DNA from: Escherichia phage BAU.Micro_ELP-22
Strand: one strand, 5' to 3'
Sequence record: OR699282.2
Length of the DNA: 64,000 nt
Part shown: piece after piece, positions 3,849 to 28,816 of the stretch
How the letters are laid out: each line of letters begins with the position of its first letter
How positions within the stretch are numbered: the first letter of the stretch is position 1
The notes under the pieces: model-generated
Told to the model about the DNA's origin: nothing
The model's database searches: none
What the model saw: only the letters and a program-made list of their open reading frames with translations
Made by a program: the position numbers and the translations under genes

Positions 3849-4537
3849 ATGAAAACTATCACTACTACTACTTTCGTTATGGATTTTTCTGAATTGAACG
3901 CAGAACAAAAAACGTCAGCTATCGAACTGGTTCGGGAACGTGAAAAAAACTCAAACGACATTTTTCTGAATTGAACGCAGAACAAAAAACGTCAGCTATC
4001 GAACTGGTTCGGGAACGTGAAAAAAACTCAAACGACAATTATTTTTCTGAAAGTGAAATTGAATACTATAAAGAAACAGTACTACCGGAATATGGCATTA
4101 ATGACGCTGAAATACAATTCAGTGGTTTTTGGTCCCAGGGTGACGGTGCATCAATCAGTACTGACCACGTTGACGCAGTGAAGTTTTTACGCAAGGTAAG
4201 AGCATTAACTAAGTATCGCTCAATCCGTCACTTGCTGAATGAAGATGATTTGGCGATGAGTGTAAAGCGTTCGCACTCCCACTACTCGCATGAGAATACT
4301 GTAAGCGGGTACATTGAATCGGCTTACACTGATTTAACCGCAAAACAAGAAACGTTAGTTAATGAGCTTGAGGAACTACTCACTGAAACTATTCGTGAAT
4401 TGTCCCGCAAGTTGTACCGTGATTTAGAGAATGCATATGAGGATCAATTCACTACTGAAAACATTACGGCACTGATTGAGGGTAACGAGTATCAATTCAA
4501 TGTTATTGATGGCGTAGTGGAATCAATCGAATATTAA
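3849..4537 (+). pseudogene. Acidic hypothetical protein gene disrupted by a 77-bp perfect tandem duplication
   Basis: ATG 3849; units 3884-3960 and 3961-4037 identical; 77 is not a multiple of 3, so frame from 3849 stops at 3972-3974 and the remainder (3971..4537) lacks an ATG; removing one unit restores one ORF. Confidence 0.7.
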
Positions 4538-10485: not shown

Positions 10486-10629
10486 ATGAATCCAACAGGT
10501 TTAAACTATAAAAGTTGTTCGGCATTTACGAAAGCAAATAAAGCGAATGCACGTAAAGCGAAAGTACAGGAATACATCAAGCAAGGCATGACGCGAAAGG
10601 CGGCGATTCTAAAAGCTAAAAATAAATGA
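10486..10629 (+). CDS. small basic protein (47 aa)
   Basis: ATG 10486 directly after TAA of preceding peptide; Lys-rich; not in ORF track. Confidence 0.35.
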   Translation: MNPTGLNYKSCSAFTKANKANARKAKVQEYIKQGMTRKAAILKAKNK

Positions 10630-10638
10630 AAAAAGTGG

Positions 10639-10717
10639 TTGACTCCGGTCAGCCATTTTGCTATTATATATTCATTGAGAGATAGCTCACTAGCCCACAG
10701 GGTGCAGGAGTGTATCT
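10639..10717 (+). repeat. Repeated intergenic element, type A
   Basis: TTGACTCCGGTCAG..TATTATAT then CATTGAGAGATAGCTCACTAGCCCACAGGGTGCAGGAGTGTATCT. Confidence 0.6.
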
Positions 10718-14512: not shown

Positions 14513-14658
14513 AAGAATTCTTATTCGAAGTAGTGTTTCAAGGTGTCGGTAGTAACCAACTGATTCGCTCAAGTGGTTACAATGTTAACCAGGCATGGAA
14601 TAACATTAAACAAATGTACCCGAACGCTATCACCTATCGCAACCCGAAAGAAGTTTAA
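14509..14658 (+). CDS. hypothetical protein (49 aa)
   Basis: ATG 14509 overlaps upstream stop (ATGA); third member of a coupled mini-operon. Confidence 0.45.
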   Translation: MKEFLFEVVFQGVGSNQLIRSSGYNVNQAWNNIKQMYPNAITYRNPKEV

Positions 14659-14686
14659 AAATAATTGAAAAAGGGATTGACTCCGG

Positions 14687-14750
14687 TCAGTCCCTTTGCT
14701 ATTATATACGCATAGAAACAAATCAGCCCACAGGGTGCATAAATGTATCT
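14687..14750 (+). repeat. Repeated intergenic element, type A
   Basis: TTGACTCCGGTCAGTCCCTTTGCTATTATAT then CGCATAGAAACAAATCAGCCCACAGGGTGCATAAATGTATCT. Confidence 0.6.
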
Positions 14751-14972: not shown

Positions 14973-15248
14973 ATGCGGATTCTACTGACAGCTAACGAAA
15001 TCGAACAAGTACTGACTACTAACCTGGAAGACTGGAAACGTGAAGCAGATATCCAGGCGGTTCAATGGCTTAACGATAAGTTAACGCCGGATGACTTAAG
15101 CAAGATTGTAGATCCTCAATTCTACGAAGATATTCACGACACCGCGTTAAGCGTCGAGGATGTACTAGATAAGCACTACATTGATACTGATTTGCAGGTT
15201 TACGGTCGTAAAAACTTTATCACTATTCACGATATTTACAATAATTAA
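14973..15248 (+). CDS. hypothetical protein (91 aa)
   Basis: ATG 14973, SD AAGGAA. Confidence 0.7.
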   Translation: MRILLTANEIEQVLTTNLEDWKREADIQAVQWLNDKLTPDDLSKIVDPQFYEDIHDTALSVEDVLDKHYIDTDLQVYGRKNFITIHDIYNN

Positions 15249-15334: not shown

Positions 15335-15517
15335 ATGGCTAAGTGCACTATCTGTAATAAAGAAATAGTATTAGTTCCAAGTGCCCGTGAACGTGCCGCT
15401 CGGTTCGGTGGCAAAGCGTCAGACTATACAAAAATGTTTACTGCCCATACAGCTTGCCAGGTAGCAAAACGTTCACAAGAAAGCGTAGAATTAATGCGTA
15501 AACTTTCCAAAAAATAA
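15335..15517 (+). CDS. small Cys-containing protein (60 aa)
   Basis: ATG 15335; CTICNKE ... HTACQ possible zinc-ribbon; SD-like AGAGAGA. Confidence 0.65.
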   Translation: MAKCTICNKEIVLVPSARERAARFGGKASDYTKMFTAHTACQVAKRSQESVELMRKLSKK

Positions 15518-17064: not shown

Positions 17065-17649
17065 ATGCGTAATTATACTAAATTCATCCGTACCCTGTCA
17101 GAAATGGAAACCAACAAAGAGATCCTTTCAGCTTGTCGGTTAGCTGGCCTGGAGATCATCGGTGCTGGTTCTTCCCGTATAGTTTTCGCTTTAAATGATC
17201 GGTTAGTGATTAAGGTCGCGAATTGTGATGCGGGTGTAGAACAAAATGAAACTGAATGTAAGGTATGGAATTTTTTAGACTATGACCGCCCTCAGTTGAA
17301 ACAGTACTTTGCAAAGGTGCATATGCATTTATGCGATCCTGATAATATGTTTATCGTTATGGATCGGTTGAGTACTGCAAGCAAAGGCAGTGTGAAGCAC
17401 GTAAACGCGTGCAATGAATTAAAGTACAATATTAAACGTAATGCAATCGAACGCCAGCACCGCTTTGCTGATGCACTACAACACGTTGATGATACATTAT
17501 CAACACTAACGATAAGAGATATCAGAAAACAGAATATCGGCCAGGATCGTAATGGACTTATTAAAGTACTTGATTACGGTTTAACCAGCAATATCTGGAA
17601 TCAGTACTATAAAAAGCGTGATGTGGCAGCAAGTAAGGTAACACGATAA
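17065..17649 (+). CDS. minimal Ser/Thr protein kinase-like protein (194 aa)
   Basis: Track ORF 17008 trimmed to ATG 17065 (SD AAGGAG, 8 nt); Gly-rich loop GAGSSRIVF, Lys in VIKVAN, catalytic-loop-like RDIRKQNIG, DFG-like LDYG. Confidence 0.65.
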   Translation: MRNYTKFIRTLSEMETNKEILSACRLAGLEIIGAGSSRIVFALNDRLVIKVANCDAGVEQNETECKVWNFLDYDRPQLKQYFAKVHMHLCDPDNMFIVMDRLSTASKGSVKHVNACNELKYNIKRNAIERQHRFADALQHVDDTLSTLTIRDIRKQNIGQDRNGLIKVLDYGLTSNIWNQYYKKRDVAASKVTR

Positions 17650-17667
17650 AAAAGATTAAAAAAGGGA

Positions 17668-17746
17668 TTGACTCCGGTCAGTCCCTTTGCTATTATATAT
17701 CCATTGAGAGATAACTCACTGACCCATAGGGTGCGGAAGTGTATCT
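17668..17746 (+). repeat. Repeated intergenic element, type A
   Basis: TTGACTCCGGTCAGTCCCTTTGCTATTATAT then CATTGAGAGATAACTCACTGACCCATAGGGTGCGGAAGTGTATCT. Confidence 0.6.
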
Positions 17747-19909: not shown

Positions 19910-19930
19910 CAAAAAAGAATAAAAAAGGGA

Positions 19931-20004
19931 TTGACTCCGGTCAGTCCCTTTGCTATTATATACGCATAGACAAAAACTAGCCCACAGGGTGCATAGGTGT
20001 ATCC
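19931..20004 (+). repeat. Repeated intergenic element, type A
   Basis: TTGACTCCGGTCAGTCCCTTTGCTATTATAT then CGCATAGACAAAAACTAGCCCACAGGGTGCATAGGTGTATCC. Confidence 0.6.
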
Positions 20005-21255: not shown

Positions 21256-21505
21256 TGCGTAAAGGGATCTAGTACTGATTCAGAAAAAAGTCAAGGCGTT
21301 TTTTAAATTATGCGTTAAAAAAATGCATAGGTAATCCCTTGACTTTTTTGAAATAAAAGGGATTGGACTATGGCAAAATGCGTAGGGGGCTAAAGGGCGG
21401 GTAACCTTTAGCGACTTCGATAAAGGGGTATTACGAATAAAATGTTATTGATTTTTTATACGAATCGTATATTATAGGATTGATATTATTTTTAATGGAG
21501 TCCCT
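21256..21505. promoter_or_regulatory. Boundary intergenic region with nested inverted repeats; probable array promoter
   Basis: AAAAAAGTCAAGG (21283-21296) / CCTTGACTTTTTT (21337-21350); GCTAAAGG..CCTTTAGC hairpin near 21388-21412; TTGATT 21448-21453 plus TATTAT-like -10. Confidence 0.45.
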
Positions 21506-21703
21506 ATGCGTATTTTAACTAAAGAACAGCACCACGAAAGACTTATCAATAACATGGCTATGATAATGTATAAGTCCCATGACCGTGGTATTGCCTATAA
21601 GCGTGAATTAATTATGGCACTATTCATTGGAACTAACTTTCAGGAAAGGTATGTCAACGATTGGATTTGGTATTTAATTGAAGATATAACGAGTAAACTA
21701 TGA
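21506..21703 (+). CDS. small tandem family F1 paralog (65 aa)
   Basis: ATG 21506, SD GGAG; C-terminal FIGTNFQERYV..WI..LI..I core. Confidence 0.65.
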   Translation: MRILTKEQHHERLINNMAMIMYKSHDRGIAYKRELIMALFIGTNFQERYVNDWIWYLIEDITSKL

Positions 21704-21900
21704 AAATGCGTATTTTAAATAAAGAAGAATATCAATCACTGTTACGTAAAAACTTCACAAAGATTTATAATACAGACACACACGTAGAACGAATGGAGTT
21801 ATACCTTTTGATTACTTTGGGAACTAACTATCAGGAAAGATGGGTGATTCAATATATGGATACATTGAAAAATAAAATATTGTCCACGAGGAAACAATGA
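21700..21900 (+). CDS. F1 paralog (66 aa)
   Basis: ATGA stop/start overlap; LGTNYQERWV core. Confidence 0.65.
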   Translation: MKMRILNKEEYQSLLRKNFTKIYNTDTHVERMELYLLITLGTNYQERWVIQYMDTLKNKILSTRKQ

Positions 21901-22106
21901 AAACTATAACACGAACCCAATCATACGGTCTTATCTTGAAATACATGGACTTAATGGTGGATATCAGCAAAGACCTTCCTAAAACTGAAATTGAAGTTGC
22001 AAGAGCAGAGATCCGCATGTTGGCTGTACTGAACACAAACCATCAGGAAGATTATGTTGAAGAATGGATTCGATTTTTAATAGAAGATATTAAGAGTAAA
22101 CTATGA
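21897..22106 (+). CDS. F1 paralog (69 aa)
   Basis: ATGA overlap; LNTNHQEDYV core. Confidence 0.65.
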   Translation: MKTITRTQSYGLILKYMDLMVDISKDLPKTEIEVARAEIRMLAVLNTNHQEDYVEEWIRFLIEDIKSKL

Positions 22107-22318
22107 TTATTATAGAAAACTCATATCAATATACTGAACGCATCGCTGCCAGACAACTTGAAATCCTCATAATATACGAAGAGACTTCTGATTTAAACTT
22201 AGCCGAGGTATTGGAAAATGATATACTATTGGGTGCATTCTTAGGAACAGACTATCAGAAGTATTATGAGGAAAAGTATTTGTCATCTCTTGAGAAATAT
22301 ATCAGGAGCAAATTATGA
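22103..22318 (+). CDS. F1 paralog (71 aa)
   Basis: ATGA overlap; LGTDYQKYY core. Confidence 0.65.
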   Translation: MIIIENSYQYTERIAARQLEILIIYEETSDLNLAEVLENDILLGAFLGTDYQKYYEEKYLSSLEKYIRSKL

Positions 22319-22527
22319 TTTTTTTAACACCAGAAGAATATAAGAAACGTTTCAATTCCGCACAGGGTGAAATCTTACTTATATACCTTTCAAATGCAGA
22401 CCTTAACTTATCAAGGGTATTAGAAAAAGATTTACTTATGGGTGCATTCCTTGATACAGACTTTCAGGTGTATTATGTAGGGGAATACTTAATTGCACTT
22501 CAGAATTATATCAGGAGTAAACTATGA
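22315..22527 (+). CDS. F1 paralog (70 aa)
   Basis: ATGA overlap; LDTDFQVYYV core; close to 22103..22318. Confidence 0.65.
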   Translation: MIFLTPEEYKKRFNSAQGEILLIYLSNADLNLSRVLEKDLLMGAFLDTDFQVYYVGEYLIALQNYIRSKL

Positions 22528-22742
22528 AACATTTAAGTAACTCCGAGAAGAATAAAATTATCGTTGCTGCAATAAACAAATATTTTACACTTCCTCACAC
22601 AGAAGGTTTATGTGTAAGGGAACACAGGATAAACACCACCGATATACGCATGATGGCTGTACTGGGGACGAACTTTCAGGAAGAGTATGTTGTTGCACAC
22701 ATAGTTGCCCTCACTGATCTAATAAGGGACAAATGTAAATGA
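22524..22742 (+). CDS. F1 paralog (72 aa)
   Basis: ATGA overlap; LGTNFQEEYV core. Confidence 0.65.
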   Translation: MKHLSNSEKNKIIVAAINKYFTLPHTEGLCVREHRINTTDIRMMAVLGTNFQEEYVVAHIVALTDLIRDKCK

Positions 22743-22996
22743 AACACTTAACTGATGATGAATTTGAAACTATAATTCGTAAACTAACCCCCATCACAAG
22801 GATAGTCTACGGTGACCCCAGCCTTACATGGAACCAAATGCGAGCTAAAGTTAATGAGCTATGGTTGCTGTACTTTATGGGGACTCAATATCAAGATAAG
22901 TTTTGCACAGAATATATCGAACAATTAACGAATGTTATACAGGATAAACTAGATGATTATTTGCTCACAAAACATGAAGACTTTATCAGGAGTTGA
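22739..22996 (+). CDS. F1 paralog (85 aa) with C-terminal extension
   Basis: ATGA overlap; MGTQYQDKF core; stop displaced so the reading frame runs into the next gene. Confidence 0.6.
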   Translation: MKHLTDDEFETIIRKLTPITRIVYGDPSLTWNQMRAKVNELWLLYFMGTQYQDKFCTEYIEQLTNVIQDKLDDYLLTKHEDFIRS

Positions 22997-23225
22997 GTAT
23001 CAAACTGCCCTATTCTCTTTAATCCATGCCCTTAGAAAAAACAATGCCTTATATGGTGCACCTGAAGTGGATGTTATCAACGGTGAACTTTATCTTATGA
23101 AATTCATTGGAACAAACTATCAAGATCTGTTCATTCAACGATACTTATCAGCATTAAGAAACCAAATCCAATATAAAACCCAGAGAGCCAAAAAAGAATG
23201 GAATAAACAATGCGACACAGACTAA
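22953..23225 (+). CDS. F1 paralog (90 aa; start uncertain, alt ATG 22974)
   Basis: IGTNYQDLFI core. Confidence 0.6.
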   Translation: MIICSQNMKTLSGVEYQTALFSLIHALRKNNALYGAPEVDVINGELYLMKFIGTNYQDLFIQRYLSALRNQIQYKTQRAKKEWNKQCDTD

Positions 23226-23458
23226 ATCACAAAATGTATTGTAAACTATTACAGACACTGGCACAGAAACACTATGACACGGTATCTGGAATATTACCCT
23301 ATGATATCATGCGTTTACTTCACTGTGAGGCCGAGATGCTTGTACTGATGACAGGCACTGATAAAAACGCAATTGCCAAATCAATAGATATGTTCATCGA
23401 AGCACACTGCCAACACATGAGAACCGAAATCTGGAGGAAAGAGAATGATAATCCTTAA
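23210..23458 (+). CDS. F1 paralog, divergent (82 aa; start uncertain)
   Basis: MTGTDKNAIAKSIDMFI core variant. Confidence 0.55.
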   Translation: MRHRLNHKMYCKLLQTLAQKHYDTVSGILPYDIMRLLHCEAEMLVLMTGTDKNAIAKSIDMFIEAHCQHMRTEIWRKENDNP

Positions 23459-23660
23459 TGAGTATCAGTATCATTGGAGGTTACAAACTATCAAATCAAA
23501 AGTGTATAGTATTGTGTTAAACAAATCTATTGCACAAGAGGACAAATGTGTTATAATAGCTGAAATGAAGTTGGGTGCTTTCGTAGGGACAAACTATCAA
23601 AACATCTACACTGACGTATTGTTAAGTGCCTTACGTAACAAGGTGGTATCCAAAATATGA
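23445..23660 (+). CDS. F1 paralog (71 aa)
   Basis: VGTNYQNIY core. Confidence 0.65.
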   Translation: MIILNEYQYHWRLQTIKSKVYSIVLNKSIAQEDKCVIIAEMKLGAFVGTNYQNIYTDVLLSALRNKVVSKI

Positions 23661-23875
23661 GAAATTTACAAGGCTTTGAATACATCAGACTCCTGAAAAC
23701 ATGTGGAAGCAGAAGGAGAATGATATCAAGCGATAAGAGCATCCAAGCTAACCTTAAGCACGCACTAGTAACTGAACTCTATGTAGGTGCACTCTTAGGC
23801 ACAAACTATCAACAAATGTATGTAGATCTATGGATTGACGCTCTACAGAAAGAGGTTAAAAGTAAATGCAAATGA
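23657..23875 (+). CDS. F1 paralog (72 aa)
   Basis: ATGA overlap; LGTNYQQMYV core. Confidence 0.65.
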   Translation: MRNLQGFEYIRLLKTCGSRRRMISSDKSIQANLKHALVTELYVGALLGTNYQQMYVDLWIDALQKEVKSKCK

Positions 23876-24084
23876 TTAATTTAAGTAAAGACGAATTTTA
23901 TGTTATACTGGCGAAAACTTATCCAGCACGTAAGGCCGTTTATGATAGTCACATTATTGAACCCTCAAAGAAGTTGATTTTAGTAAATGAGATAAAGATG
24001 CTTTCAGTCTTAGGAACAAACTATCAAGAGAATGCTGTACTGATGTTAATTGATGCCCTCCAGAGAGAGGTTAAACGTAAATGA
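23866..24084 (+). CDS. F1 paralog (72 aa)
   Basis: LGTNYQENAV core. Confidence 0.65.
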   Translation: MQMINLSKDEFYVILAKTYPARKAVYDSHIIEPSKKLILVNEIKMLSVLGTNYQENAVLMLIDALQREVKRK

Positions 24085-24311
24085 AAATGATTAATTTAAC
24101 TTACCATGAATATCAAAAACGTTTAAATGCATCCAGAGATATAAGGATTCAAATATTCAATAACAAAAAATTGAAACCTGATACCAGAAGAATCAAAATC
24201 ATAGAAGCCGTGTTGTGTAACTTCCTAGGGACTAACTATCAGGAAGGTAAGGTAGAAAACTATCTTATAGAACTCATGAATAGTATTGAAAATAAATGTA
24301 AGGGTAATTAA
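24081..24311 (+). CDS. F1 paralog (76 aa)
   Basis: ATGA overlap; LGTNYQEGKV core. Confidence 0.65.
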   Translation: MKMINLTYHEYQKRLNASRDIRIQIFNNKKLKPDTRRIKIIEAVLCNFLGTNYQEGKVENYLIELMNSIENKCKGN

Positions 24312-24312
24312 C

Positions 24313-24552
24313 ATGAAAATGATTAAATTATCTCAAGCAAAATATAAAGAACGCCTGGTGAAAATTGCACCTGGACTTAATGAAATCCATCACGGAGAAG
24401 TCATTAAACACGGAAATAAGATGATTATGAAACTTGAGTTAAAGGTGGGTGCATTCATAGGAACAAACTATCAGGAGTATTATGTAGATGAATACATAAT
24501 CGCACTTAAGAGATACATTGGAAGAAAACTATATATACAAACTAAAGAATAG
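24313..24552 (+). CDS. F1 paralog (79 aa)
   Basis: Track ORF 24286 trimmed to ATG 24313; IGTNYQEYYV core; shares about 50-bp junction repeat with next gene. Confidence 0.6.
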   Translation: MKMIKLSQAKYKERLVKIAPGLNEIHHGEVIKHGNKMIMKLELKVGAFIGTNYQEYYVDEYIIALKRYIGRKLYIQTKE

Positions 24553-24581
24553 TATTGAAAATAAATGTAAGGGTATTTAAC

Positions 24582-24845
24582 ATGAAAATGATTAATTTAA
24601 GTAAAGATGAATATACCGAGCGTATGACAAAAATTACGCACAAACGTAATACAATCTATCACAACCCAGAAATTCAACACAGTAAGAAAATGATTATGAT
24701 GCGTGAGTTAAAGATGGGTGTATTCTTAGGAACAAACTATCAAGATACAGAAGTAAATCGCTTAATCGCGGAGTTACTACTGGAAATCAGAGGTAAGCTG
24801 TACTTTCATCAAATGACCCAACCACTGAGGTGTACTGATCGATGA
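24582..24845 (+). CDS. F1 paralog (87 aa)
   Basis: Track ORF 24555 trimmed to ATG 24582; LGTNYQDTEV core. Confidence 0.6.
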   Translation: MKMINLSKDEYTERMTKITHKRNTIYHNPEIQHSKKMIMMRELKMGVFLGTNYQDTEVNRLIAELLLEIRGKLYFHQMTQPLRCTDR

Positions 24846-25093
24846 ATGCGATGAATATTGTGAATAACATCAGATTAGCAGAAAGATTTGATAGAATTGG
24901 GGAAGCACTGAGAAGATACGATAAAGAATATGGTCATTTGAGCTTTTCTATAGAAAAGAGATATGAACTTGAAGCAGAGTTTAAAATGCAGAGTCTCTTA
25001 GGCACACAGTATCAAAACCAATATATTCAAACTTGGATTGATTGTTTAATCCAGACAATTTACGTAAGAAACATTAAATGCAAAATGAAATGA
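24842..25093 (+). CDS. F1 paralog (83 aa)
   Basis: ATGA overlap; LGTQYQNQYI core. Confidence 0.65.
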   Translation: MNAMNIVNNIRLAERFDRIGEALRRYDKEYGHLSFSIEKRYELEAEFKMQSLLGTQYQNQYIQTWIDCLIQTIYVRNIKCKMK

Positions 25094-25332
25094 TATACTT
25101 AACACATGATGAGTTAACAGAAAGACTAGATAAATCCAAAAGACTTACAAATAAACTTCCTCACAACACAAATCAAACCCCAGCAGAAAGGAGTGCAGAA
25201 GTTTTATTCCAAAGATTACCATACCTTCTTGGAACTGATAGGCAAGAGTATCACATTGAACGTATAATTAAATATCTCAAAATTACTATTAAGGAAAAAG
25301 TAAATGCAAATGAAATACTTAACAGACGATGA
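25078..25332 (+). CDS. F1 paralog (84 aa; start uncertain)
   Basis: LGTDRQEYHI core; close paralog of 25304..25555. Confidence 0.6.
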   Translation: MQNEMIYLTHDELTERLDKSKRLTNKLPHNTNQTPAERSAEVLFQRLPYLLGTDRQEYHIERIIKYLKITIKEKVNANEILNRR

Positions 25333-25555
25333 GTTAAAAGAACGACTAATTAAATCCAGAAAACTTACAAATCAACTTCCAAACGACACAAACAAGTCAC
25401 ATGCCGAAAGGAGTGCAGAAGTTTTATACATTCAACTCATGTACTTTCTTGGCACTGACAGACAAGAGTATTACATTGAAAGTATGCTTCGATATCTTAA
25501 ATTCTCTATAAAGGAAAAGATACATGCTCAAGAATTTAAAAATCCTAACAGTTAA
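25304..25555 (+). CDS. F1 paralog (83 aa; start uncertain)
   Basis: LGTDRQEYYI core; shares HAERSAEVL with previous gene. Confidence 0.6.
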   Translation: MQMKYLTDDELKERLIKSRKLTNQLPNDTNKSHAERSAEVLYIQLMYFLGTDRQEYYIESMLRYLKFSIKEKIHAQEFKNPNS

Positions 25556-25766
25556 TGAATATCATACGATTGTAATGAAAACTAATAGTGCAATTTCTAA
25601 AAAATCAAACCCCAAGTACATACTGGAACACACATTTGAAGAACGTCAATTAGCTTTAGTTGAAGCAAAACTTCTTGCACTCCTAGGAACAAACTATCAA
25701 GAAGAATACATCAGAAAACTAATATACCTTTTAACTAAACATATAAGAAAAAGAAAAAATGCATGA
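25524..25766 (+). CDS. F1 paralog (80 aa)
   Basis: LGTNYQEEYI core. Confidence 0.6.
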   Translation: MLKNLKILTVNEYHTIVMKTNSAISKKSNPKYILEHTFEERQLALVEAKLLALLGTNYQEEYIRKLIYLLTKHIRKRKNA

Positions 25767-25993
25767 AACACTTGACAGATGATGAACATGGGCTTATAGT
25801 AATGGATGTAATCAACATCGAATACAAAAAGTTGATACGCTACCGTTGTTATGAAGATAAGCAACTCGTTCTAGCAGAACAGAAGTTGTTTCGACTCTTA
25901 AACACAAACTTCCAAGCACAATACGAAGAATCGTATATGTACCTTTTGGCGAGGAAAGCAAAAAGAGATTATGAAAATTTTAAGCAAAGGTGA
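25763..25993 (+). CDS. F1 paralog (76 aa)
   Basis: ATGA overlap; LNTNFQAQY core. Confidence 0.65.
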   Translation: MKHLTDDEHGLIVMDVINIEYKKLIRYRCYEDKQLVLAEQKLFRLLNTNFQAQYEESYMYLLARKAKRDYENFKQR

Positions 25994-26186
25994 TTCAGTA
26001 ATATTACTTATAGAGAGTTCAAGTAAATTCTTAAACATAACACTGTCTGATATAGATGAAGATGACAAAGAAGTACTGAGAGCAGATTTAAGAGTACTGT
26101 TACATATCGGAACAAACCTACAAGAAGAATATGTAGAGTGCTACATCAATGAACTTAAAGAATTAGTACTGAGAACATGCAAATGA
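25971..26186 (+). CDS. F1 paralog (71 aa)
   Basis: IGTNLQEEYV core. Confidence 0.6.
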   Translation: MKILSKGDSVILLIESSSKFLNITLSDIDEDDKEVLRADLRVLLHIGTNLQEEYVECYINELKELVLRTCK

Positions 26187-26419
26187 AAATCCTTTCACCA
26201 AGTGAATACCACGAACTATTAAGTAGTTTAATTCTAAAATTGTATATAGCAAAGACCACAGATTTACCTGATGAAGAAAAAAATATTCTAATGAGTGAAA
26301 TCTATGTTAATTCTACCCTAGGGACTAACTATCAAGAATGTAATATTAATGATTACATCAAAGAACTAAAAAGGTTTATCCAATGCAAATGCGAATCATT
26401 ACCGAAACAGAATACCTAA
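26177..26419 (+). CDS. F1 paralog (80 aa)
   Basis: LGTNYQECNI core; close paralog of next gene. Confidence 0.65.
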   Translation: MQMKILSPSEYHELLSSLILKLYIAKTTDLPDEEKNILMSEIYVNSTLGTNYQECNINDYIKELKRFIQCKCESLPKQNT

Positions 26420-26625
26420 CAATCATAAATGGACTGTTTTTGAAGTTATTTGCCATTAACACATCAAAACTACCAGATACTGATAAAATTATTAAGTTAA
26501 ATGAAATCTATGTTCAAGCTACACTGGGAACTAACTATCAAGAAGCCAATGTGTATAATTACATTAATACACTCAAAAGGGTAATAAAATTAAAATGCAC
26601 AAACAGCCAATACACAAACCACTAG
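26383..26625 (+). CDS. F1 paralog (80 aa)
   Basis: LGTNYQEANV core. Confidence 0.65.
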   Translation: MQMRIITETEYLTIINGLFLKLFAINTSKLPDTDKIIKLNEIYVQATLGTNYQEANVYNYINTLKRVIKLKCTNSQYTNH

Positions 26626-26825
26626 GAACAGCAGAATACATTGAACTCATGGCATTACACTTCTCATCCTTTCAGAAACTTAGGCGAGAATCAAAGAATG
26701 ATTTAGAATATACCATCAGAGGTTCCGATTTAAGAATGCTTCTCACCCTAGACACAGATTCCCAAGAGCGATTTGTCAATGAGCATATTAGAGCACTTTT
26801 AATGGAAATTCAAAGTAAACTATGA
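26595..26825 (+). CDS. F1 paralog (76 aa)
   Basis: LDTDSQERFV core. Confidence 0.6.
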   Translation: MHKQPIHKPLGTAEYIELMALHFSSFQKLRRESKNDLEYTIRGSDLRMLLTLDTDSQERFVNEHIRALLMEIQSKL

Positions 26826-27037
26826 AGATAATATCAAACCAAGAGTACTTGGCACTATTCAGGAAGAATAATCACAAATATATGGCACTTGATTCAAGAA
26901 CTGATATAAGTGAACTTGAAAAAAATCTTTTGCGTTCAGATATGATAGTACTGACACTCTTAGGAACACAGCATCAAGAGAGAACTGTTAATTCACACAT
27001 AGGGATTCTTATGCAGATAGTACAGGAAAAGATATGA
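26822..27037 (+). CDS. F1 paralog (71 aa)
   Basis: ATGA overlap; LGTQHQERTV core. Confidence 0.65.
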   Translation: MKIISNQEYLALFRKNNHKYMALDSRTDISELEKNLLRSDMIVLTLLGTQHQERTVNSHIGILMQIVQEKI

Positions 27038-27255
27038 GAATCATAACACAACAAGATATTCTTAAGTTCACAAGGGTTCATGCATCTGAATTTGATGCTA
27101 TATTATCAAAAAGTTACAACAACCCTTATACACAAGATGTACATTACAGTGAATTATGGATGTATATACTTTTAGGTACAAATAAGCAAGAGCAAGCCGT
27201 ACAGAAGTATTTGACAGCTTTACGTGATGCTACTGCTAATGGAGTACATGTTTAA
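27034..27255 (+). CDS. F1 paralog (73 aa)
   Basis: ATGA overlap; LGTNKQEQAV core. Confidence 0.65.
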   Translation: MRIITQQDILKFTRVHASEFDAILSKSYNNPYTQDVHYSELWMYILLGTNKQEQAVQKYLTALRDATANGVHV

Positions 27256-27256
27256 T

Positions 27257-27499
27257 ATGAAAGTACTGACAGAACTAGAAATGTATCATAGATTTAATAA
27301 GTACTATCATTTACTTAAGCCTATACAGAGGATTAAATGTCCATTTGAAGAGAAACAGGTTTTAATCTATGAGCACAAGTTCTTTGTATCATTAGGTACA
27401 GATCAACAAGAGTACTATTTGACGTTGTACTTGATTACATTAATAGATTTAATTCACTATAAAACCAAACAAGCTAATAAAGAGAAATATGAAAACTAA
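27257..27499 (+). CDS. F1 paralog (80 aa)
   Basis: Track ORF 27224 trimmed to ATG 27257; LGTDQQEYYL core. Confidence 0.6.
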   Translation: MKVLTELEMYHRFNKYYHLLKPIQRIKCPFEEKQVLIYEHKFFVSLGTDQQEYYLTLYLITLIDLIHYKTKQANKEKYEN

Positions 27500-27833
27500 T
27501 ATACAACTCAAGGTATATAAATCATTTGAACATACATATATCAAAAGTAGTCTATGTAGAGATGTAATGGATTACAAGGGTAAGCCATTCACAATTACCT
27601 ATGATTCTTATGTTAGTGATTTATATATATCATTTGTTAATTACGAAAATAAAATATACAAGCACGTTGATATTAAAGATTTAAGTACTTTATCACCAGA
27701 GGAATACTTTCAGGAATCATTAGTATGGGATTTAGAGTTTCCTATGCCATTAGTACATAAGATGATAGTACTAATGAAAGAATCTAAACAGGAGCCTAAT
27801 GGTGATTATGAAGAACACACAGTTGAGTATTAA
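27489..27833 (+). CDS. large tandem family F2 paralog (114 aa)
   Basis: PEEYFQESLVWD core followed by short helical C-terminus. Confidence 0.6.
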   Translation: MKTNIQLKVYKSFEHTYIKSSLCRDVMDYKGKPFTITYDSYVSDLYISFVNYENKIYKHVDIKDLSTLSPEEYFQESLVWDLEFPMPLVHKMIVLMKESKQEPNGDYEEHTVEY

Positions 27834-28203
27834 AAGTACTGATAATATTAAGAGTTATACAAGCTCAAGTACTGTGACAATCGAAGTGAATTCTCTTAAT
27901 GCTGGTAATACAGTAGATAAGTTCTTTATTGCTCAAGGGTACAGGAAAGATATTCATCAATATTGTTCAGTATATGGGGAGTACAATAGTACTGAAGATA
28001 TAATTTATTGGTCAACACATCAAGATTATATAACTAAAATTGGCGTTCCAGATGTTAGTACTTTATCTGAAGAAGAATACTTTCAGTACAGCTTAATATG
28101 TGATGTACCTATACCTTTAGGGTTAATCAAGGGTATACAGGAAGAGGTTCATAAGCTTAAATCCATGAGTAAAGGTACTTTCATTAGAACAGTGCAATAC
28201 TAG
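27799..28203 (+). CDS. F2 paralog (134 aa; start uncertain)
   Basis: EEEYFQYSLICD core. Confidence 0.6.
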   Translation: MVIMKNTQLSIKSTDNIKSYTSSSTVTIEVNSLNAGNTVDKFFIAQGYRKDIHQYCSVYGEYNSTEDIIYWSTHQDYITKIGVPDVSTLSEEEYFQYSLICDVPIPLGLIKGIQEEVHKLKSMSKGTFIRTVQY

Positions 28204-28204
28204 C

Positions 28205-28233
28205 TTGACAGTACTTTTCATTACTGATATAGT
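28205..28233 (+). promoter_or_regulatory. sigma70-like promoter inside array
   Basis: TTGACA 28205-28210, 17-bp spacer with AGTACT, TATAGT 28228-28233. Confidence 0.55.
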
Positions 28234-28262
28234 ACACTAACGTTAATCATAGGGTAAAAATT

Positions 28263-28508
28263 ATGTTAAATTTTTTAAATTTTCTTATCGTCTTGTGTAT
28301 TGTTCTTGGGATTGCACCATTTGTATTGTATTTCATGGATTCAGATGAAATGCAAAAGATGAATTGCACAAGGACAGGACAGAGTAGAGTAGAGACGATT
28401 CTTATGCCTGTTACGGTTATTGTTAATAATATGCCCATTACCAACATGGTCCCTACCCTAACGACAACGTACCAGTACTCTTGTGCTGACGGAGAGAGGT
28501 GGAGATGA
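28263..28508 (+). CDS. small membrane protein (81 aa), not a family member
   Basis: N-terminal hydrophobic helix FLNFLIVLCIVLGIAPFVLYF; own promoter; SD AGGG. Confidence 0.6.
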   Translation: MLNFLNFLIVLCIVLGIAPFVLYFMDSDEMQKMNCTRTGQSRVETILMPVTVIVNNMPITNMVPTLTTTYQYSCADGERWR

Positions 28509-28816
28509 AATTTAATATAGCAAAAACATCGAGTATATGTATTTTTGGTTATGCAGAAGAGTTAGGTGATATTGACATTCTTTTGTACAAAAAGGATGGT
28601 GTTATGCATTTCAAGTACCAGGATGAAGAGGCAGACAATTATCTTTTACCTAATTTAGTACAAATGCAGGAAGAGGAATTATTCCAGTACAGCTTAGTAT
28701 ACGACATTGATATTTGCACGATGCCAGTACTAATTAGTATTCAAAAAGTGATGCTCGATATGTATGATAAGCTAATACAAGGTATGTCAGGGAGGATCAT
28801 TGAAATTGACATATAA
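28505..28816 (+). CDS. F2 paralog (103 aa)
   Basis: Track ORF 28499 (GTG) trimmed to ATG 28505; EEELFQYSLVYD core. Confidence 0.6.
   Translation: MKFNIAKTSSICIFGYAEELGDIDILLYKKDGVMHFKYQDEEADNYLLPNLVQMQEEELFQYSLVYDIDICTMPVLISIQKVMLDMYDKLIQGMSGRIIEIDI

Follow-up and report, generated by a model that had tools for sequence, protein, structure and literature searches.

A 53-nt direct repeat bordering a variable gene in a tandem small-gene array of Escherichia phage BAU.Micro_ELP-22

Two 53-nt repeat copies in Escherichia phage BAU.Micro_ELP-22 (OR699282.2) very probably constitute the left and right joints of an insertion/deletion unit built by recombination within a tandem multigene array. The repeat was analyzed in a stretch of 64,000 nt of this sequence record (hereafter the window; 34% GC) and in related phages, among which one gene of the array, designated here gene B, is present or absent together with one copy of the repeat. 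The mechanism is the classical one, recombination of an ordinary kind between repeats, by which the genes of an array are added, removed and homogenised, and comparisons between isolates suggest that exchange between the two copies is ongoing. The locus adds a further case to a known class of events and reveals no new mechanism.

The array, the repeat and a fused gene end

A 6-kb query spanning positions 21500-27500 of the window retrieved 35 phage records, all of them from Escherichia or Salmonella jumbo phages, with identities ranging from 84% to 98% and none identical to the query. Every matched record whose taxonomy line was read (PBECO4, 121Q, phAPEC6, SP27 and others) belongs to the genus Asteriusvirus and, judging by sequence similarity, the window can be assigned to a PBECO4/121Q-like jumbo coliphage of this genus. 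The array (21506-27499, + strand) comprises 27 head-to-tail small paralogues, encoded by consecutive ORFs of 65-90 aa with the motif LGTNYQE. Neighboring genes are linked mostly by ATGA-type or longer stop/start overlaps, which occur at 23 of the 26 internal junctions, and a sigma-70-like site (21448-21475) is located just 5' of the first gene. Given these overlaps and the position of the sigma-70-like site, the PHROG 4148 array looks like a single translationally coupled operon. The four array genes scanned against family profiles (A, B, C and g5) all matched PHROG 4148, annotated as 'unknown function' (E 1e-22 to 1e-26; for A, B and C, 1.7e-24, 1.3e-26 and 7.3e-26, respectively, over profile positions 1-72/73 of 74), and no Pfam family was found for any of the four. 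The gene content of the array varies widely among the 12 related genomes that were mapped in full. Genes of this family are called inconsistently in Asteriusvirus annotation, for which the locus is useful, and the UE-S1, CBB and Sharanji papers contain nothing specific on the PHROG 4148 family or on array turnover in Asteriusvirus. A second tandem family of small genes (motif EEYFQxSL, PHROG 13866) lies directly 3' of the PHROG 4148 array, at 27489-28816.

The segment of the array that carries the repeat is composed of the following features:

24081-24311, + strand: gene A, 76 aa, PHROG 4148; its 3' end is the left 34 nt of J1
24278-24330, + strand: J1, repeat copy 1; the final 10 codons of A and TAA (NSIENKCKGN*), a 1-nt gap and the first 6 codons of B
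24278-24546, + strand: presence/absence unit of 269 bp (one joint plus gene B); its register is arbitrary within the repeat
24313-24552, + strand: gene B, 79 aa, PHROG 4148, the variable gene; family-typical end ...GRKL, then a 6-codon extension, YIQTKE, into J2
24521-24580, + strand: out-of-frame relic of an A-like C-terminus; reads EENYIYKLKNSIENKCKGI*, versus VENYLIELMNSIENKCKGN* in A
24547-24599, + strand: J2, repeat copy 2; the last codon of B and TAG, the 29-nt spacer and the first 6 codons of C
24553-24581, + strand: 29-nt intergenic spacer between B and C, the only spacer in the array longer than 1 nt (other junctions overlap or have a 1-nt gap)
24582-24845, + strand: gene C, 87 aa, PHROG 4148, 3' of J2

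The two copies are spaced 269 nt apart and are identical at 51 of 53 positions, with mismatches at 24307/24576 and 24327/24596. A preliminary description, made from the sequence alone, had placed a direct repeat of about 50 bp at 24283-24330 and 24548-24600; the repeat itself stands, but these coordinates are a few bases off the true 53-nt copies, and the 47-mer quoted there was located at 24280-24326 and 24549-24595 with one mismatch. The same description had each copy covering the 3' end of one gene and the 5' end of the next, which is accurate for J1 but not for J2, where the stop codon of B (TAG, 24550-24552) falls inside the repeat and is followed by the 29-nt spacer before C starts. The spacer contains a Shine-Dalgarno-like AAGGG, located 8 nt 5' of the start codon (ATG) of C.

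A search allowing up to 3 mismatches identified only these two copies in the 64 kb. Within the array, J1/J2 ranks best among the 351 pairs formed by its 27 junctions: it matches at 51 of 53 positions, the next-best pair at 45 and the average pair at 20.5 (sd 4.7). The sequences flanking the copies are far less alike (103/146 nt, or 71%, between the bodies of B and C, and 18/27 in the 27 nt upstream). The region is AT-rich, as is the window at large, and repetitive, so that a chance match or an assembly or sequencing artefact might be suspected; the probability of either is nonetheless negligible, since none of 100 dinucleotide-preserving shuffles produced a comparable match, 19 GenBank records of independently sequenced phages have the two copies in this arrangement, and the exact haplotype of the window over 24081-24845 recurs in four further, independent public assemblies. 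These recurrences exclude an assembly artefact and confirm that the repeat noted in the preliminary description is real.

The DNA that follows the body of gene B is what remains of the end of an A-like gene, joined to B in a different reading frame, and J2 is mostly made up of this relic and the spacer instead of being a normal gene junction. Translated in the other frame, 24521-24583 reads EENYIYKLKNSIENKCKGI*H, and the corresponding segment of A (24252-24314) reads VENYLIELMNSIENKCKGN*H. The relic joins the body of B at a shared AGAAAACTAT; over its first nine codons it has come to differ from A, with 18 matches in these 27 nt, and from 24547, the first position of J2, onwards the two are identical. 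An extension of the repeat further upstream was considered at the nucleotide level and rejected, as its margin is thin: the in-register upstream 27-mer is only marginally the best of 6147 positions (18 matches versus several 17s), the similarity mostly consists of GG(T/A)AGAAAACTAT, and only 6 of the 14 nt next to it match. The homology of this segment is clearer in the protein.

Presence and absence of gene B among related phages

BLAST spans were determined among the related records with a 765-nt query running from A through C. The span was 752-765 bp in 19 records, which have the order A-J-B-J-C (J designating the junction repeat), and 484-496 bp in 12 records with the order A-J-C, including UB, 121Q, Ecwhy_1, fEgEco12, WPEC3 and TH47; the shorter span differs by about 269 bp, or one period. 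Two further records match the query only partially, CMSTMSU being without B and A4 without both A and B. The locus was also read directly in 26 genomes, among them 14 of the B-carrying and 10 of the A-J-C group, with results that agree with the split by BLAST span. All 14 B-carrying genomes read present the 269-nt spacing and the same relic, and in a multiple alignment (A1) one junction alone connects A to C in UB, 121Q and Ecwhy_1, with a clean gap of 269 columns. Related genomes therefore either have or lack the unit as a whole, and the breakpoints fall inside the repeats. Copy-number variants among isolates, which the preliminary description had proposed to look for, do exist, with 12 Asteriusvirus records lacking exactly one 269-bp period and 19 having both copies. 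Its reading of such junction repeats as substrates and products of unequal crossing-over is supported by these exact one-unit variants and by a second bracketed unit, which contains the array gene g12 (23866-24084). This unit, of 215 bp, is absent from 121Q and UE-S1 and is bracketed by the second-best pair of the junction-pair comparison (45/53, spacing 215):

23831-23883, + strand: junction upstream of g12, member 1 of the pair
24046-24098, + strand: junction upstream of gene A, member 2 of the pair

Gene B shares about 50% amino acid identity with its neighbor C and 71% with its closest relative, designated B', the two gene bodies aligning closely along their length. B' is found in CMSTMSU (L005:3387-3635), fEgEco12, WPEC3 and EC.P1, in a slot between g11 and g12 that lies two genes upstream of the slot of B and is likewise flanked by junction-type repeats. 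B and B' were found together in none of the genomes read. The occurrence of B' in another slot suggests that the B lineage is older than the present arrangement and, considered jointly with the g12 unit and the varied gene content of the array, it points to the turnover of units at junction repeats as a general property of the array. In the slot after C (g16, 24842-25093), phAPEC6, SHEFM2K, slurp01, UE-S1, 121Q, Turkey3 and other relatives carry a gene that is only 44-47% identical, and several BLAST matches break at about 24836, suggesting that, at the next junction, one entire gene has been exchanged for another. An AlphaFold model of B (24313-24549, with an alignment of 26 window paralogues) predicts a three-helix bundle (pLDDT 95, pTM 0.80); its search against the PDB returned no meaningful neighbor (best E 4.2), and its BFVD matches were Asteriusvirus paralogues only.

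The proposed course of events would have started with an unequal or illegitimate exchange, located at AGAAAACTAT, by which B became joined to an A-like gene tail; this fusion would have created the second junction between an A end and a start codon. Homologous exchange between the two copies would then take place in a recombination-rich replicating pool, which is assumed by analogy with T4-type phages. Crossing-over or copy-choice between them would delete B, the reciprocal product carrying a duplicated B, and exchange of this kind may account for the loss or transfer of the unit in some lineages. Short-patch gene conversion would in turn re-homogenise the copies, most fully in the lineage of the window (51/53). 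The reciprocal product with two copies of B was seen in none of the genomes read, a small sample in which its absence is weak evidence.

As B is absent from the most divergent lineages (121Q, TH47, A4, ph0011), the comparison favors a gain of B in the PBECO4-like group. The relic, on the other hand, implies an ancestor of more complex organization, and the close relative UB could either have lost B or have imported an A-J-C segment. The uniformity of B was also considered as a pointer to gain versus loss. Over 73 aa the protein shows no difference among 18 records (100% identity), and the body of the gene has 2 segregating sites, both protein-neutral, among 13 genomes (UE-S1 excluded); C is nearly as uniform, and this indicator is not decisive.

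Junction alleles and gene conversion

At least four forms of the orthologous junction, quite unlike one another, occur among the genomes read:

alpha allele: AAATGTAAGGGTAATTAACATG; J1 of 13 of the 14 B-carrying genomes read, and A-C junction of UB and 121Q
beta allele: AAATGTGAGGTTGATGAACATG; J2 of six B-carrying genomes, and A-C junction of Ecwhy_1, CMSTMSU and others
gamma allele: a different junction sequence; ph0011 and Turkey3
delta allele: a different junction sequence; UE-S1, A-B junction only

UE-S1 is the single exception to an otherwise invariant, alpha-type J1 in the B-carrying genomes read. J2, on the other hand, is dimorphic among genomes, the alpha and beta states being distinguished at 24569, 24573, 24575 and 24578, and the identity between J1 and J2 is graded accordingly:

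J2 alpha with window-private changes (this window): 51/53
J2 alpha (SP27, PBECO4, JP4, E9.1, BF17, ECO103, SD-2_S15): 50/53
J2 beta (phAPEC6, G17, SHEFM2K, slurp01, CRJP21): 46/53
J2 beta-like, with delta J1 (UE-S1): 40/53

Nucleotide diversity (pi) among the B-carrying genomes, UE-S1 excluded, is 0 in J1, 0.005 in the body of B, 0.006 in the tail of B and 0.009 in the body of C, with values of 0.047 in J2 and 0.037 in the body of A. The alpha and beta states of J2 differ by 4 substitutions in 10 nt, in a B-to-C haplotype that is nearly uniform elsewhere (clustering P <= 0.002). Between the window and SP27 there are 5 differing sites in 765 nt, of which 3 are located in J2 (24576, 24585 and 24593, all with states private to the window), and 2 of these 3 differences are changes to the J1 state. 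Since the differences between J1 and J2 are arranged in short clustered patches, gene conversion is indicated. The near-identity of the copies in the window represents the upper extreme of a range extending from 40/53 to 51/53 and appears to be best explained by short-patch conversion superimposed on an older rearrangement; the private changes in its J2 would fit conversion from J1. Phages without B also have the beta allele, at their A|C junction, and the window-private J1-like bases are also found, singly, in 121Q and UE-S1. Because other members of the genus thus show each of the J2 states, the alpha/beta patch could have been donated by a co-infecting phage instead of by J1, and recombination between phages is an alternative source for the two J1-like bases of the window. 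A search of IMG/VR and JGI metagenomes for the alpha/beta junction pattern returned only 121Q itself, the metagenomes yielding no match.

Alternative explanations and comparison with known systems

Two other histories of gene B bear on the interpretation of the repeat. B could be a recent in-place tandem duplicate of C, the bodies of both genes having diverged fast under diversifying selection while the junction remained fixed. The genes are indeed adjacent, they share the 269-nt period and they are 71% identical over their first 146 nt; yet B is much closer to B', which occupies a different slot in four phages, than to C, its protein is invariant in 18 records, the opposite of fast diversification, and the source of the unit's tail is an A-like gene and not C. 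The protein and nucleotide comparisons consequently refute B as a young duplicate of C, and we consider this history highly improbable. It is also conceivable, if rather unlikely, that B arrived as a small excised circle containing one junction and B, integrated by a single homologous exchange at an A|C junction. Single-crossover integration predicts the order J-B-J with a spacing equal to the length of the unit, B-type genes reside at two alternative slots in different phages, each between junction repeats, and the block made up of J1, B and the B tail hardly varies (pi 0-0.006) compared with A (0.037; UE-S1 excluded). Circles between repeated cassettes have moreover been documented in phages phi1 and RB49 (PMC2839356). 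Against this stand the near-equal uniformity of C and the need for an earlier event to produce the fusion of B to the A-like tail, and the circle differs from exchange between joints within the array in its intermediate alone.

The resemblance of the copies could also reflect functional constraint on the sequence preceding B and C, as a translation-initiation region, a regulatory RNA or a protein-binding site, without any contribution of recombination. An AAGGG located 8 nt 5' of the ATG in both copies, within unstructured sequence, would suit translation initiation, and a weak promoter-like match in each copy (TTGAAA-17-TAACAT) agrees with the sigma-70 consensus at 9 of 12 positions. Such matches, however, occur at the level of the shuffled background in the consensus scan (37 found versus 34.3 expected), a scan of 24000-24900 detected no terminator-like site, and folding of both 53-mers and their 101-nt contexts gave no structural signal (z-scores -0.18 to +1.38), each 53-mer having an MFE of -0.9 kcal/mol (z-scores +0.93 and +1.38). 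The left 34 nt of the repeat are, in copy 1, ordinary coding sequence of A, most internal junctions of the array (23/26) rely on stop/start overlaps instead, and the existence of four junction forms among relatives argues that the junction sequence is not constrained. An explanation by constraint is hence improbable, and to the extent that sequence analysis can tell, the repeat carries no detectable signal of its own beyond an ordinary Shine-Dalgarno motif and the downstream start codon.

Recombination between joints within the array, the reading preferred here, conforms to several known systems. Tandem multigene families are described by a general population-genetic model of birth-and-death and concerted evolution, driven by unequal crossing-over and gene conversion. 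Head-to-tail paralogues, repeats placed one unit apart, presence or absence of whole units and patchy homogenisation are common to that model and to the present locus. The locus differs in that only a 53-nt repeat is involved, which straddles a gene boundary in a translationally coupled phage operon, and in that neighboring genes are old and about 50% identical, instead of being near-identical copies. In phage T4, deletions arise between short direct repeats, and efficient recombination requires about 50 bp of homology. The 53 nt found here are close to the length at which exchange becomes efficient, and in both cases the deletion removes one repeat plus the intervening DNA.

The T4-type PeSLs (promoter-early stem-loops), which combine a strong sigma-70 promoter with a terminator hairpin, are likewise short repeats that lie between small, non-essential early-type genes and serve as recombination points for the insertion, deletion or replacement of single genes (PMC2839356; Comeau et al. 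2014, PMC4122927). The junction repeat, like PeSLs, borders insertions and deletions of individual small genes that distinguish close relatives, but it has neither promoter nor hairpin and is partly coding. A bolder view, to which we assign a low probability, is that the array junctions, each joining a conserved gene end to a conserved gene start, are built-in, partly coding recombination cassettes that shuffle and re-homogenise single 70-aa genes, possibly via mini-circles, with translational coupling retained, as a coding-embedded counterpart of PeSLs that would reshuffle a host-takeover or anti-defence repertoire. In poxvirus gene accordions, copy number changes through recombination between repeats in a large DNA virus and variants spread in a conversion-like manner (Sasani et al. 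2018, PMC6115191), as appears to be the case here. Accordions differ in that one gene is amplified to identical copies within the time span of laboratory experiments (PMC6115191), whereas a single divergent paralogue has been gained or lost here over the divergence of isolates, and no amplification of B was seen in the genomes read.

The locus provides a base-resolved natural example of turnover in a small orphan-gene family of jumbo phages. Its fused gene-end relic is a record of an earlier rearrangement, the graded genomes illustrate a rising identity between J1 and J2, and the 269-bp shift in size offers a simple assay for repeat-mediated recombination in a jumbo phage.

Several other repeats were observed in the window. 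Positions 1-21000 contain at least 24 copies of a 70-90-nt cassette, located ahead of almost every small gene (e.g. at 1642, 2419, 3102, 5425, 9592, 10160, 15243, 15512, 17782, 18089, 18640 and 20485), and many exact 43-59-nt repeats of this region correspond to these PeSL-like cassettes. The layout of the cassette is AAAAAGTACTTGCA/TTGACA, 17 nt, GTATAATGTTTTACATC, a GC-rich hairpin (such as GAGAGGGGGAAATGGTTCTCCC) and SD/ATG; this amounts to a near-consensus sigma-70 promoter plus a stem-loop, resembling a T4-type PeSL, and no copy lies inside the array. A second cassette (family D9), consisting of promoter-like sequence within an inverted repeat (AAAAAGGGATTGACTCCGGTCAGTCCCTTTGCTATTATATA...CCCACAGGGTGCA), is present in four copies, at 10619-10711, 14657-14749, 17648-17740 and 19911-20003. 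An exact 44-nt repeat at 15246/15515, formed by two promoter cassettes around the ORF at 15335-15517, also has a spacing of 269 nt, and the sharing of this value with J1/J2 appears to be a coincidence. The non-coding segment at 779-906 is made up of 8-nt periodic repeats (GGATGGCT / AGACGGCT / AAACGGCT; family D11), and a perfect 77-nt tandem duplication (3883-3959/3960-4036) overlaps the start of the ORF at 3971-4537.
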